40,995 nucleotides of DNA from sequence record PP430152.1, one strand, 5' to 3'. Below are positions 25,721 to 28,914 of the stretch, piece by piece (within the stretch, counting starts at the first letter, position 1; the number at the start of each line of letters is the position of its first letter). The translations under genes were made by a program, and so were the position numbers. Below the pieces are notes generated by a model, which did no database searches, had not been told where the DNA came from, and was given only the letters and a program-made list of their open reading frames with translations. Source of the stretch: Enterobacteria phage FtMidnight.

Positions 25721-27376
25721 TCACCATTCGGCTGATAAAACTTCAGGATATTTCTTGTTTACCCATACCCGCAAGCGGCTTGGCGTTCTTAACTCTGAAA
25801 CACGTTTCAAAGCTTCATGCGTTGTTGGCGGTGCGTCTTCTTTGTGCCGTTGCTTCCACCAATCACGGGAACGCTTCGCCGCAAATCCGTTGTGTTCAAG
25901 CATAACAAATTCATTGAACATTTGCAAGCCGCAAAAGTACGAAACTTTAATCATTGGCGGTTTCATTAAAACGCCTTCTTTGTTTCGTTTTTCATGCAAG
26001 TTGTAAATTACTTTGTCAACCTTGAAGTATTCAACTTGCGGCGCGTCACTTCGCAAAGGTGCAAGTTCACCAGCACTTGCAAAGATTTTTGTTTCAAAGC
26101 TAAATTCATGGCCGCAATTTTCACAACGGCGGGCGCTGGCATGGTTGTAAACACCGCACACTTCGCAAAGCCTTACAGGTGCGTCACCGCCGCCCTTGCC
26201 CGGTCTGTTTGGAATACGCGGGTCATTGATTGGCCCCAAGCGCCTGACATTGCCCGAAAAATCCGCATACAGGCAATTTTGCTTGCCTGTTCCGGGTGAA
26301 GGGCGAGTACCGCGCCCCAACTTTTGAACATGCTTGCCGGGGCTTAGTGTGGGGTTCAAGTCTGCAATGAAATCAATAGGCGGATGGTCAAAACCAGTTG
26401 TAAGCTTTTGGCCGCTCACAAGCCCGCGAATTTCACCAGCCTTGAAAGCCCGCAAGCGTTCGGTGTTTACTTTGGCCGAAAGCTTGGAATGCACCGGCAA
26501 AACGTCAAGACCATACGATTGAATAACGCTTGCAATATGTTCGGTGTTGTCAATGCCTGTTGCAAAAACAAGCCAAGTTGAGCGGTCACTTGCCATTTCA
26601 AGCATTTCTTGAACCGCACCAAACGTCACTTCATCCGTATCAACAGCCTTTTCAAGCTGTTTTGAATTGAACTCGCCAGCCGTCATGCCCACACTAGAAA
26701 TATCAACTTCCGTGCGAGTTGGCCTAGCCACCAGCGGGGCAAGGAAGCCTTCAGCAATCAACCGATTGAATGAATCAATGCCGGTAATGTCATAACAAAA
26801 ATCAGTGAAAATACCGTTTTCAGTAATCAACCCCATTTTCATACGGTACGGCGTAGCGGTGAAGCCAATGACCTTCAAATGAGGGTTTATCTTTATCAAT
26901 TCGTTTATGATGAACTGATAATGTGAATTTTCTTTATCGCTCAACAAATGGCATTCATCAATTATCAGCAAATCACGCCAGCCAAAATGCCGCAAGTGCG
27001 GCGGTCTTCCGTCATCTGTTTCAAGCGCCCTTTTAATTGCAGGCGCTACCGATTGAACGCCACCAAATACAATAGGCATTATCATATCACGGCTGTTCAA
27101 ACCGGCTGAATAAATGCCAATTGGTGCAACCGGCCAAATGCTTTGCAGCTTTTCAGCGTTTTGTTCAATTAGTTCCTTAACATGGGTAAGCATCATAATA
27201 CGTTGATTAGGCCAACGCTGAAGCACGTTCTTGATGAACGAACCAATTACAACGCTTTTGCCCGTTCCTGTTGGCATTGCAACAACCGGATTGCCGGTTT
27301 TGCCGCTTTGGAAATACTCAAAAATTGAGTATTCAGCCGCGTCTTGATACCAGCGCGGTACATAAAGTTCAGTCAT
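25721..27376 (-). CDS. SF2 DEAD/DEAH-box DNA helicase with C-terminal zinc ribbon
   Basis: 551 aa; motif I AMPTGTGKS, motif II IIDECHLL, arginine-finger-like QKLGRGTRP; CEVCG...CENCG zinc ribbon. Confidence 0.7.
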   Translation of the reverse strand: MTELYVPRWYQDAAEYSIFEYFQSGKTGNPVVAMPTGTGKSVVIGSFIKNVLQRWPNQRIMMLTHVKELIEQNAEKLQSIWPVAPIGIYSAGLNSRDMIMPIVFGGVQSVAPAIKRALETDDGRPPHLRHFGWRDLLIIDECHLLSDKENSHYQFIINELIKINPHLKVIGFTATPYRMKMGLITENGIFTDFCYDITGIDSFNRLIAEGFLAPLVARPTRTEVDISSVGMTAGEFNSKQLEKAVDTDEVTFGAVQEMLEMASDRSTWLVFATGIDNTEHIASVIQSYGLDVLPVHSKLSAKVNTERLRAFKAGEIRGLVSGQKLTTGFDHPPIDFIADLNPTLSPGKHVQKLGRGTRPSPGTGKQNCLYADFSGNVRRLGPINDPRIPNRPGKGGGDAPVRLCEVCGVYNHASARRCENCGHEFSFETKIFASAGELAPLRSDAPQVEYFKVDKVIYNLHEKRNKEGVLMKPPMIKVSYFCGLQMFNEFVMLEHNGFAAKRSRDWWKQRHKEDAPPTTHEALKRVSELRTPSRLRVWVNKKYPEVLSAEW

Positions 27377-28481
27377 TTATTGAACCTGCTGTAATTGGGT
27401 GATATTCAGAACAGCCCTTTGGTACAAAGTCACGCGGTATATTCCCGCAATGCACTTTGCAAAACCATTCGCCATTTTCAACAGGGCTTGCATGTTTGCA
27501 GCTTCTGCAATTCTTTTCAGGTATTGCGCCCTTGTGGCAAATGTCTTTAGCGCCGCACCAATTGCACTTATAAAAGGTTGGATTGTCAGAAAGCCGCGCC
27601 GGGGCTTCTTCTGAAAAAATAATCTGTTCCGCCTTGGCTTCCATTTGTTCGCCTAGCTTATGGTCAAGCTTCACAAGTTCAACATGCAATGAATCATCAT
27701 TTTTGTTGATGTTTAGGTAAAGAACCCAATTGAAGCCATAATTTTTGCCATAAGTTGACGTTTGGGCGAAGTGTTGGGGTTTTGCAACGGCCATGCCTTT
27801 ATTGTTCAAATCATCAAAGCCTTTGCCGGTTCCGTTGGTTTTGAACTCTAACAAAACAGGTTCGTCAATCCCGTATCGTTCTGGAAGCCTTGCAATGCCA
27901 TCAAGCGAACCGCCAAAGTGACCCATTGCGCTTGAAATGCGATATTGTGGGAACTCCAAACCATCGGCTTTAGCGCGGCCAACATGTTTCAGGTAATGCG
28001 GGTTATCTTCAGTGATAAGTTCGCAAAGCGGCGCAAGTTCTTCACCGGCTTTCAAAATGCCGTATGAATCACTTTCAGGGTGATAATAAAACCCTTCACG
28101 GTTTTCAAACCAGATTTTAAGCCCAATGCCCGCAAGCCATTCAACAAAGCGTTCTTCTTCCCTATGCCCACGATTAAACAGCCGTTGCATTCTGGCACGG
28201 TTTGAAGGGGTCTTAAATTCTTCCTGAAAGCACCAGCGGAAAACATACCAAAGTTTACGCTTGCATTCGTCACCAATCAACGAACCGCCCAAGTGCCAAC
28301 GGTGGCCGCCGTCATAAGCCTTTATGTTACATTCGTCAATATCTTCAGCAATGCGCTTTGCAAGTGCTTTTGCAACACCGGGCGAACTAAGTTCTACGCT
28401 TTGCCTTCCGCCGTCTGATTTGTTCGGCGTTTCTTCTTTCAGCGGCAATTGTGCGTTCATTTCTTCTTTCTTGTTTGGCAT
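27369..28481 (-). CDS. Cas4/RecB-like PD-(D/E)xK exonuclease with Fe-S cluster motif
   Basis: 370 aa; D...E-x-K (SLDGIA...LLEFKT), QxxxY (AQTSTYG), N-terminal Cys (GDECKRK) plus C-x2-C-x5-C (CNWCGAKDIC); extra C-terminal CRSC...CKVHC; RBS AGGTGA. Confidence 0.6.
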   Translation of the reverse strand: MPNKKEEMNAQLPLKEETPNKSDGGRQSVELSSPGVAKALAKRIAEDIDECNIKAYDGGHRWHLGGSLIGDECKRKLWYVFRWCFQEEFKTPSNRARMQRLFNRGHREEERFVEWLAGIGLKIWFENREGFYYHPESDSYGILKAGEELAPLCELITEDNPHYLKHVGRAKADGLEFPQYRISSAMGHFGGSLDGIARLPERYGIDEPVLLEFKTNGTGKGFDDLNNKGMAVAKPQHFAQTSTYGKNYGFNWVLYLNINKNDDSLHVELVKLDHKLGEQMEAKAEQIIFSEEAPARLSDNPTFYKCNWCGAKDICHKGAIPEKNCRSCKHASPVENGEWFCKVHCGNIPRDFVPKGCSEYHPITAGSIND

Positions 28482-28914
28482 CTTGTTTCACCTTGCGGCG
28501 CATTAGCGCGTCATAGTTGGTTTTAATGTAATCTGAAGAAAGGGTAATGGTGTCTTTCAACTGGTCTTTTGAAAGCCATGAAATATGACATTCTGAAGAT
28601 TCAATGCCAAGTTCACTAGCAAGCCAATTGTAAGCCTTCTTTCTTGTCATAAAGCCGCCTTGCCAAAGCCTATCAAATTCATTATGGGCTTTGGTTCTAA
28701 GTTGGCGGGTTTGCCTATCGGCCATGCGACCAAGCGGAATTTCAGTGTTTTTATGACAACCAACAGCGGCGCGGCAATCACTACAAAAATAAATATAAGG
28801 CCATTCGCCGTATTCTTTGCCGTAAATTATTTGATTGCTTGTCAGTTCGATATTCACTGAACAACAGTTGTCACATTGCTTGGGTATTGGCAATGCGTCT
28901 TCTATTTTCGACAT
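28387..28914 (-). CDS. zinc-ribbon protein (possibly DUF3268-like), basic C-terminal tail
   Basis: 175 aa from the ATG at 28914 (RBS AAGGGG); CDNCC...CSDC...CH and ECHISW motifs; the longer track ORF to 29334 overlaps the SSB-like gene and a terminator. Confidence 0.5.
   Translation of the reverse strand: MSKIEDALPIPKQCDNCCSVNIELTSNQIIYGKEYGEWPYIYFCSDCRAAVGCHKNTEIPLGRMADRQTRQLRTKAHNEFDRLWQGGFMTRKKAYNWLASELGIESSECHISWLSKDQLKDTITLSSDYIKTNYDALMRRKVKQDAKQERRNERTIAAERRNAEQIRRRKAKRRT

Follow-up and report, generated by a model that had tools for sequence, protein, structure and literature searches.

Enterobacteria phage FtMidnight (sequence record PP430152.1) encodes a PD-(D/E)xK exonuclease that is best explained as a resection exonuclease serving a Sak4/SSB annealing system (SSB, single-stranded DNA-binding protein) in the replication/recombination operon of a Septimatrevirus-like siphophage. 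This explanation is considered probable, and it is drawn from the fold of the protein together with the conserved neighbourhood of its gene. The nuclease is a member of an already catalogued phage exonuclease family and occupies its usual place in the Sak4/SSB module. Secondary points of note are a putative second metal site found family-wide, a recurrent gene overlap that hides the gene of a DUF3268 protein, and an attenuator-like hairpin after the SSB gene. The window referred to below is the whole stretch of DNA analysed, 40,995 nucleotides (nt) in length.

Exonuclease family and fold

A preliminary description made from the sequence alone had named two open reading frames (ORFs), one for a Cas4-like nuclease and one for a zinc-ribbon protein of 175 amino acids (aa). 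Both lie on the minus strand where they had been placed (Table 1). The nuclease matches PHROG 1990 with E=1.1e-102, residues 33-365 corresponding to profile positions 6-286 of 290, and a 97%-identical protein is found on a public contig. An exhaustive HMMER search gave homologues in 2,594 clusters at 50% identity (E<=1e-3). Sequence searches of Pfam, NCBIfam and the PDB do not see this family, although it is very large.

Conservation was counted in 150 representatives of the clusters at 50% identity and scored out of 151; further alignments comprised 120 close homologues and nine annotated phages down to ~29% identity. The hallmarks named beforehand (D, ExK, QxxxY and one plus three cysteines) are all present and near-invariant among the 150 representatives, a pattern that exceeds chance by far. 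The catalytic residues are kept in 149 (D194), 144 (E212), 150 (K214), 150 (Q240) and 147 (Y244) of the 151 sequences, and the catalytic motifs are invariant in another of the alignments. The motif G-H106-x-E108 is near-invariant too, both in the representatives and in the two further alignments.

The AlphaFold2 (AF2) model of the nuclease has a mean predicted local distance difference test score (pLDDT) of 77.8, with the core above 85 and residues 1-26 and 59-68 below 50. It contains the restriction-endonuclease-like core (alpha-beta-beta-beta-alpha-beta). A Foldseek comparison with the PDB ranks Cas4 SSO0001 first (E=2e-3, probability 1.0), followed by ACE1, MGME1, lambda exonuclease, LHK-Exo, Exo5, type I-C Cas4 and RecE. 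Model and comparison together support a PD-(D/E)xK protein, so that the nuclease fold proposed from the sequence is upheld; as modelled, it is that of a PD-(D/E)xK exonuclease of the lambda-Exo/Cas4 class. A published HHpred analysis connects two members of the family, phage 73 ORF030 and KL1 gp31, with lambda Red-alpha at 99.2% probability (PMC3483164). When the nuclease profile was aligned to lambda Exo with hhalign the ExK motifs were paired, at a non-significant probability of 0.3%. A faint match of the nuclease to radical SAM (rSAM)/SPASM proteins (E=0.18) was dismissed as noise from the cysteine pattern.

Some members of the family deviate in structure. Only some have the ~50-residue insertion at about residues 124-178 (27948-28112, minus strand), which is modelled at pLDDT above 90 as strands and a helix; it is missing from homologues of 313-332 aa, namely the KL1-like ones and many metagenomic ones. 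The homologue of Vibrio phage H188 (2716-3774) has K-I-E aligned to the ExK motif and replacements of Q240 and Y244 but retains all eight cysteines. Either a shift in the alignment or the loss of catalytic activity in a paralogue may account for this. In Pseudomonas phage PSV3 (NC_069754, 574-2226) the annotation splits the nuclease into two pieces and the helicase into three. An intron, intein or mobile insertion was rejected as the cause, and in this draft assembly ('clone NODE_1') the splits look like frameshift errors in a fragmented assembly.

Two putative metal sites in the exonuclease

AddB, Dna2 and Exo5 share one and the same C-x2-C-x5-C spacing, which is also that of the C-terminal cysteine triad of the nuclease (here C306-NW-C309-GAKDI-C315). 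Together with one N-terminal cysteine, C73, the triad makes up a Cas4-type iron-sulphur (Fe-S) module in the sequence. The few exceptions at C73 are gaps in truncated sequences. In Cas4 the triad is spaced in the same way (PMC5704561). An Fe-S cluster held by C73, C306, C309 and C315 is most likely, judging from these motifs.

The preliminary description had also pointed to an additional C-terminal segment, CRSC...CKVHC. The segment exists (C325-RS-C328, C341-KVH-C345) and an extra cluster is found throughout the family, but CKVHC is not a conserved element: C345 is replaced by Asn in 94% of close homologues, and the conserved fourth cysteine is C357 (147/151). The other three positions are kept in 149 (C325), 150 (C328) and 150 (C341) of the sequences, the exceptions being 2-residue alignment shifts or truncated sequences. 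All eight cysteines of the two putative sites are near-invariant in the nine annotated phages too.

The second module, of ~35 residues, most likely binds a structural metal. A zinc-ribbon-like zinc site is the probable form, favoured because AF2 places a beta-hairpin (331-334/338-341, pLDDT 76-92) between the CxxC knuckle and C341 and because of weak similarities of the zinc-ribbon type. A profile of the C-terminal segment gave weak generic CxxC matches only, in the PDB and in Pfam. The zinc-ribbon matches among 40 members are to Trm112p (E=0.0018, one member) and Zn_ribbon_RPB9 (six members, best E=0.009), and the GenBank note for phage 9g likewise names a Trm112p-like domain. A match to ribosomal protein S27e (E=0.028) pairs cysteines of different motifs and is probably spurious.

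A second Fe-S cluster in place of zinc, which would make this a two-cluster nuclease, is the less likely of the two forms. Four near-invariant cysteines follow directly on the first cluster; a second CxxC knuckle, as in classical zinc ribbons, is lacking from their spacing (C-x2-C-x12-C-x15-C); and no zinc-ribbon family is matched significantly. The predicted knuckle-plus-hairpin topology and the weak matches of Trm112p, RPB9 and S27e type suggest zinc instead, and no precedent for a second cluster was found in the PDB by sequence. The same search gave no solved structure with this module. The second four-Cys site, undescribed and unsolved, is a worthwhile target for structural and biochemical work.

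Gene neighbourhood

The window is a ~41-kb siphophage genome with patchy nucleotide identity of ~73-75% to Septimatrevirus phages, the relatives being Pseudomonas phage 73, Kakheti25, Stenotrophomonas DLP_1 and Xanthomonas DoCa11. From 22 to 31.5 kb every gene is on the minus strand. In the order of transcription the block consists of a MazG-like gene, a DUF7173 gene, a Sak4-like ATPase, a DUF669-type SSB, DUF3268, the nuclease, a superfamily 2 (SF2) helicase, a small ORF, a sliding clamp and a family-B polymerase. The exonuclease gene is clustered with the gene of a single-strand annealing protein, with Sak4 two genes upstream. Helicase and nuclease are separate proteins of adjoining genes, and the helicase is SF2, not SF1. 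Its match to Zn_ribbon_RanBP is weak (E=0.0022; 17.7 bits, under the 27-bit cut-off).

Table 1. Features of the exonuclease locus in the window, with positions in plus-strand coordinates
Feature	Position	Strand	Evidence or remark
PD-(D/E)xK exonuclease gene, 370 aa	27369..28481	-	PHROG 1990 'Cas4-domain exonuclease'
Catalytic motifs GSLD194, E212-F-K214, Q240-TST-Y244	27750..27902	-	near-invariant
C73 codon, putative N-terminal ligand of Cas4/AddB-type cluster (C73-K-R75-x2-W78)	28263..28265	-	145/151
C306-x2-C309-x5-C315(-H316), C-terminal triad of the putative Fe-S site	27537..27566	-	each Cys 151/151
Second four-Cys module: N324-C325-R326-x-C328, beta-hairpin, W339-x-C341, C357	27411..27509	-	family-wide
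DUF3268 (PF11672) protein gene, 175 aa	28387..28914	-	Pfam E=8.8e-35, 120.1 bits (cut-off 28.4)
DUF3268 four-Cys ribbon C14-x2-C17...C44-x2-C47	28774..28875	-	invariant in 31 homologues
DUF3268 C-terminal 59-residue helix, residues 116-174	28393..28569	-	single helix in AF2 model, pLDDT 90-98
Overlap of DUF3268 3' end and nuclease 5' end, 95 nt, out of frame	28387..28481	-	nuclease in +1 frame
Overlap of nuclease stop and helicase start, 8 nt, ATGACTGA	27369..27376	-	stop inside helicase start
Terminator-like hairpin, 13-bp GC stem and U-run	28929..28966	-	RNAfold -29.8 kcal/mol, z=-2.25
Sak4-like annealing ATPase	29717..30469	-	AAA_24 6.7e-18; PHROG 124 Sak4-like 3.2e-50
DUF669-type SSB	28973..29653	-	Pfam DUF669 2.4e-11; PHROG 6015 SSB 6e-92
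SF2 helicase, 551 aa	25721..27376	-	Pfam ResIII 1.7e-20, Helicase_C 3.2e-10

The order Sak4, SSB, (DUF3268), nuclease, helicase is kept in Kakheti25, 9g, MiCath, RcSpartan, ZCSE2, Vibrio ALK, CA8, RHph_Y1_1 and 1N2-2. Moraxella Mcat32 and Vibrio H188 have a comparable order with extra or unnamed genes; in the Mcat32 locus DUF669 was confirmed and the rest is unannotated. Among the 80 best DUF3268 loci sampled from IMG/VR, 62 have the nuclease downstream of DUF3268 with the order retained. Adjacency of nuclease and helicase is common to all related loci compared, and the SF2 helicase is the probable functional partner of the nuclease. The recombination toolkit with Sak4 and the SSB that had been suggested for this DNA fits the conserved order well.

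Between the MazG-like gene and divergent helix-turn-helix and primase genes, at 31590-31653, two near-consensus sigma-70-like promoters stand back to back; the minus-strand promoter matches 11/12 positions, the plus-strand promoter 10/12 and has TG. The replication module is probably controlled from here. Two ORFs of the block call for a remark. The listed clamp ORF (24252-25418) overlaps the upstream 134-aa ORF by 107 nt (25312-25418, minus strand), and its PHROG match begins only at residue 55; the true start is probably an internal Met (for example MTNEKPK...), which would leave a short overlap like the one in Kakheti25. In the SSB, the C-terminal half (28973-29330, minus strand) is low-complexity sequence rich in Q, G, P and A, which raises the local GC content to 52% and produces long spurious ORFs, both in other frames and antisense (29021-29683, plus strand). 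One of them is a 315-aa ORF with a TTG start that continues into the DUF3268 frame.

The DUF3268 protein

A search for DUF3268, proposed in advance, identifies the 175-aa protein clearly (Table 1). The protein corresponds to PHROG 1934, of unknown function, and its ATG at 28914 is preceded by the Shine-Dalgarno-like sequence AAAGGGG. The two CxxC pairs (C14-x2-C17, C44-x2-C47) and the tail rich in K and R are present as described. Its placement 'immediately downstream' of the nuclease is true in plus-strand coordinates only; transcriptionally the gene is upstream, and it overlaps the nuclease gene by 95 nt.

The AF2 model (pLDDT 94.4) is composed of a four-Cys ribbon with beta strands at 22-26, 40-44 and 50-53, a helical domain and a 59-residue basic helix, K/R-rich towards its end. 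Invariant positions in 31 homologues are C14, C17, C44, C47, C53, H54, P60, G62, H77, F80, D81, W84, R91, A94, Y95 and H110, and C109 is kept in at least 90%. A second constellation of Cys, His and Asp is formed by C53-H54, H77, D81 and C109-H110 (residues 53-110; 28585-28756, minus strand). The constellation could serve as a second metal site, or else as an active site, perhaps one like a His-Me finger, with a His that closes a strand and a following helix that bears His and Asp.

DUF3268 was found in 627 phage records by tblastn, and the carriers include Kuttervirus, Listeria Pecentumvirus, Enterococcus myophages and Xanthomonas Bradleyvirinae. Where the annotation is informative the neighbours are DNA-metabolism genes, and in Mallos the gene is directly upstream of polymerase and helicase; the neighbourhoods in CBA120 and List-36 are mostly hypothetical genes. 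The DUF3268 gene immediately precedes that of the nuclease in the phage 73 group, in Rhodobacter RcSpartan and in Vibrio ALK and CA8.

The gene is routinely missed or mis-called in deposited genomes, probably because of its 68-140 nt overlap with the nuclease gene. In Kakheti25 (NC_017864, 4923-5450) RefSeq has a spurious 53-aa ORF (gp32) in another frame inside the DUF3268 ORF, and in the genome table of KL1 a stretch of 510 nt from gp31 to gp32 is without annotation (PMC3483164). A protein search gave 53 DUF3268 clusters and 1,588 nuclease clusters.

Gene overlaps and the upstream hairpin

The start codon of the nuclease, the ATG at 28481, falls 95 nt inside the DUF3268 ORF and is preceded by AAGGTG at a distance of 7 nt. 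An identical 95-nt overlap is found in Kakheti25 (4923-5017). If the first ATG is taken, ~47 IMG/VR loci have overlaps of 68-140 nt, always of length 3n+2. The most downstream ATG, GTG or TTG before the conserved P34-G35 still gives at least 20 nt of overlap in 42 of 51 loci, and in many loci the sole candidate start is an ATG with an overlap of 68-116 nt. The finding in Kakheti25, the recurrence in IMG/VR and the scan of start codons together show that the overlap is not an artefact of ORF calling.

Read in the DUF3268 frame, the codon positions of the overlap have the usual pattern of pairwise variability (0.33/0.22/0.35); read in the nuclease frame, they have an abnormal one (0.22/0.35/0.33). 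It is thus mainly the DUF3268 tail that is under selection. The first ~31 residues of the nuclease form a leader under weak constraint, of which at least the first 26 are disordered in the AF2 model (pLDDT below 50). In phages without the gene overlap DUF3268 proteins are shorter and the C-terminal tail is absent.

A programmed frameshift that fuses DUF3268 to the nuclease is unlikely, because the nuclease lies in the +1 frame and starts from a conserved ATG of its own, which a Shine-Dalgarno-like sequence accompanies, and because a stop codon only two codons ahead of this ATG closes the frame in 11 of the 17 loci where the overlap is 95 nt. The nuclease and helicase genes overlap as well, by 8 nt, so the frames of DUF3268, nuclease and helicase are chained with no untranslated gap.

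The hairpin in Table 1 is located between the SSB stop and the DUF3268 start, ~20 nt ahead of the latter, and was not listed by a consensus terminator scan. An equivalent hairpin with other stem sequences, usually followed by a T-rich tract, is present in the same 54-90-nt spacer in nearly all of the 51 related loci, which suggests an attenuator that sets the SSB:nuclease ratio. With only ~20 nt left to the DUF3268 start, the hairpin most likely attenuates rather than ends transcription, and expression of DUF3268, nuclease and helicase would be lowered relative to SSB. The published 'DUF3268 RNA motif', looked for upstream of the gene, had no Rfam match here at the gathering threshold or at E<=10; the weak matches were to the terminator hairpin only. 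No Rfam-listed RNA was found in the window.

Proposed function and alternatives

As a resection exonuclease the protein would be metal-dependent, with an active site of D194, E212 and K214 together with Q240 and Y244. The role of the Fe-S cluster would be to brace the N-terminal helix on the C-terminal part, in the manner of Cas4, AddB, Dna2 and Exo5. Probably together with the translationally coupled SF2 helicase, the enzyme would resect the 5' strand of phage DNA ends and leave 3' single-stranded tails for the DUF669 SSB and the Sak4 annealase, to be used in recombination-dependent replication, repair or concatemer formation. DUF3268 would be an accessory DNA-metabolism protein co-expressed with the nuclease. 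The overlap of its last 31 codons with the nuclease start would place nuclease initiation inside a translated region, and nuclease output may therefore be coupled to, or limited by, DUF3268 translation. Metal content, polarity and the partnership with helicase, Sak4 and DUF3268 are predicted, whereas fold, motifs, conservation, synteny and overlap are observed.

Sak4 systems do poorly in recombineering. What they lack could be the cognate exonuclease, helicase and DUF3268, none of which, to our knowledge, has ever been expressed alongside Sak4. Published tests used Sak4 with or without SSB only (PMC2896510, PMC5928155). The Sak4 orthologue of phage 73 showed weak but significant recombineering (PMC2896510), and DUF669 was shown to be an SSB in HK620 and to stimulate Sak4 annealing (PMC5928155). 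A conserved recombination system of exonuclease and Sak4 was proposed in the KL1 paper (PMC3483164).

Several points weigh against the resection explanation. The full protein had zero Pfam matches at E<=10, and this holds for the PDDEXK_1 and Cas4 profiles that had been expected to recognise it; by profile it is not a Cas4-family member. NCBIfam and PDB sequences gave nothing meaningful, neither for the protein alone nor for a 38-sequence profile. The Foldseek E-values are weak (2e-3 at best) and the TM-scores are 0.2-0.37. The 5' polarity and the interaction with the helicase are predictions, the partition of the eight cysteines into two sites is drawn from motif spacing only, and the area around C73 is poorly modelled (pLDDT 45-56). 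No biochemical characterisation of any member of the nuclease family was found in the literature searched, and for the 9g nuclease/helicase pair the function was stated as unknown (PMC5567051). DUF3268 is missing upstream of the nuclease in 9g, MiCath, ZCSE2 (which has a dCMP deaminase in its place), Mcat32, RHph_Y1_1 and H188, and it occurs without the nuclease in other phage types (CBA120, List-36, Mallos and others). DUF3268 thus accompanies the nuclease recurrently but facultatively and is no obligate partner.

An unlikely alternative, though the strongest of those concerning function, is a Dna2-like replication nuclease that acts with the SF2 helicase at forks or flaps for the phage family-B polymerase and clamp. 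Plausibly it would process Okazaki fragments or stalled forks rather than prepare ends for Sak4. The structurally closest proteins are recombination exonucleases (LHK-Exo, lambda exonuclease), and Sak4 and SSB are always immediately upstream, even where other genes separate nuclease or helicase from the polymerase (9g, MiCath), which speaks for resection. The two roles are not mutually exclusive.

A more far-reaching version of the resection explanation, somewhat more doubtful still, is that exonucleases of the phage 73/9g type form a branch of the Cas4-like nucleases that is distinct and very large (~2,600 clusters at 50% identity), with two redox-active Fe-S clusters in tandem, working in a three-part resection machine controlled by DUF3268. 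The basic helix of DUF3268 would then tether nuclease and helicase to DNA or SSB, and the recurrent out-of-frame overlap would set a fixed DUF3268:nuclease ratio. Such a machine, if it exists, has no characterised counterpart.

Degradation of host or competitor DNA by nuclease and helicase, for nucleotide recycling or superinfection exclusion, is improbable. It has been raised for the Cas4-like exonuclease and helicase of 9g (PMC5567051), Cas4-like nuclease/helicase pairs do occur in defence contexts (PMC5704561), and a MazG-like pyrophosphatase is encoded nearby. The nuclease family is, however, found in phages both with and without DNA modification and always between SSB/Sak4 and the replication genes, and no discrimination or immunity component was identified at the loci examined.

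The preliminary description had mentioned that Cas4-like nucleases of phages have been linked to interference with CRISPR (clustered regularly interspaced short palindromic repeats) adaptation. A Cas4 mimic of this kind, for which the fold, the one-plus-three cysteine motif and a Campylobacter-phage precedent (PMC4283603) might be adduced, is very improbable: the precedent concerns a bona fide Cas4 homologue, there are no cas genes in the ~9 kb examined around the nuclease and no Cas4 profile membership, and members of the family are found in hosts of various CRISPR types. Cas4-like PF12705 was matched once among 40 C-terminal segments (E=3.5) with no NCBIfam Cas4 match, and an association with cas1, cas2 or CRISPR was not found, the neighbours being Sak4, SSB, DUF3268, helicase, clamp and polymerase.

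Comparison with known systems

Lambda exonuclease (Red-alpha) is a protein of 226 aa without cysteine clusters and without an adjacent helicase, and its partner is the Rad52-like annealase Beta, whereas the partner here would be the RecA-like Sak4. Unlike Cas4, the nuclease is outside the Pfam Cas4 and PDDEXK_1 profiles and has no link to cas genes. The Fe-S domains of Cas4 (SSO0001, Pcal_0546) and of AddB, Dna2 and Exo5 were compared with the second four-Cys module, and none matched it.

The DUF3268 protein matches its family (PF11672, PHROG 1934) over the full length, with the same CxxC...CxxC and the same C53-H54, H77, D81 and H110. It differs by a basic helical extension of ~50 residues and by a coding sequence that overlaps the nuclease gene. 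Shorter DUF3268 proteins (136-144 aa) are found in Kuttervirus, Pecentumvirus and Bradleyvirinae phages, where the gene does not neighbour this nuclease.

The nearest system is that of the other PHROG 1990 members, which are phage 73 ORF030, Kakheti25 gp31, KL1 gp31, 9g gp12 and BcepGomr gp43. The nuclease has ~73% aa identity to the phage 73 group and ~32% to 9g, and shares with these relatives the eight cysteines, the catalytic motifs and the place between SSB and SF2 helicase. Nothing essential differs; the FtMidnight protein carries the insertion at ~124-178 and the unconserved C345 on what is otherwise the common plan of the family.

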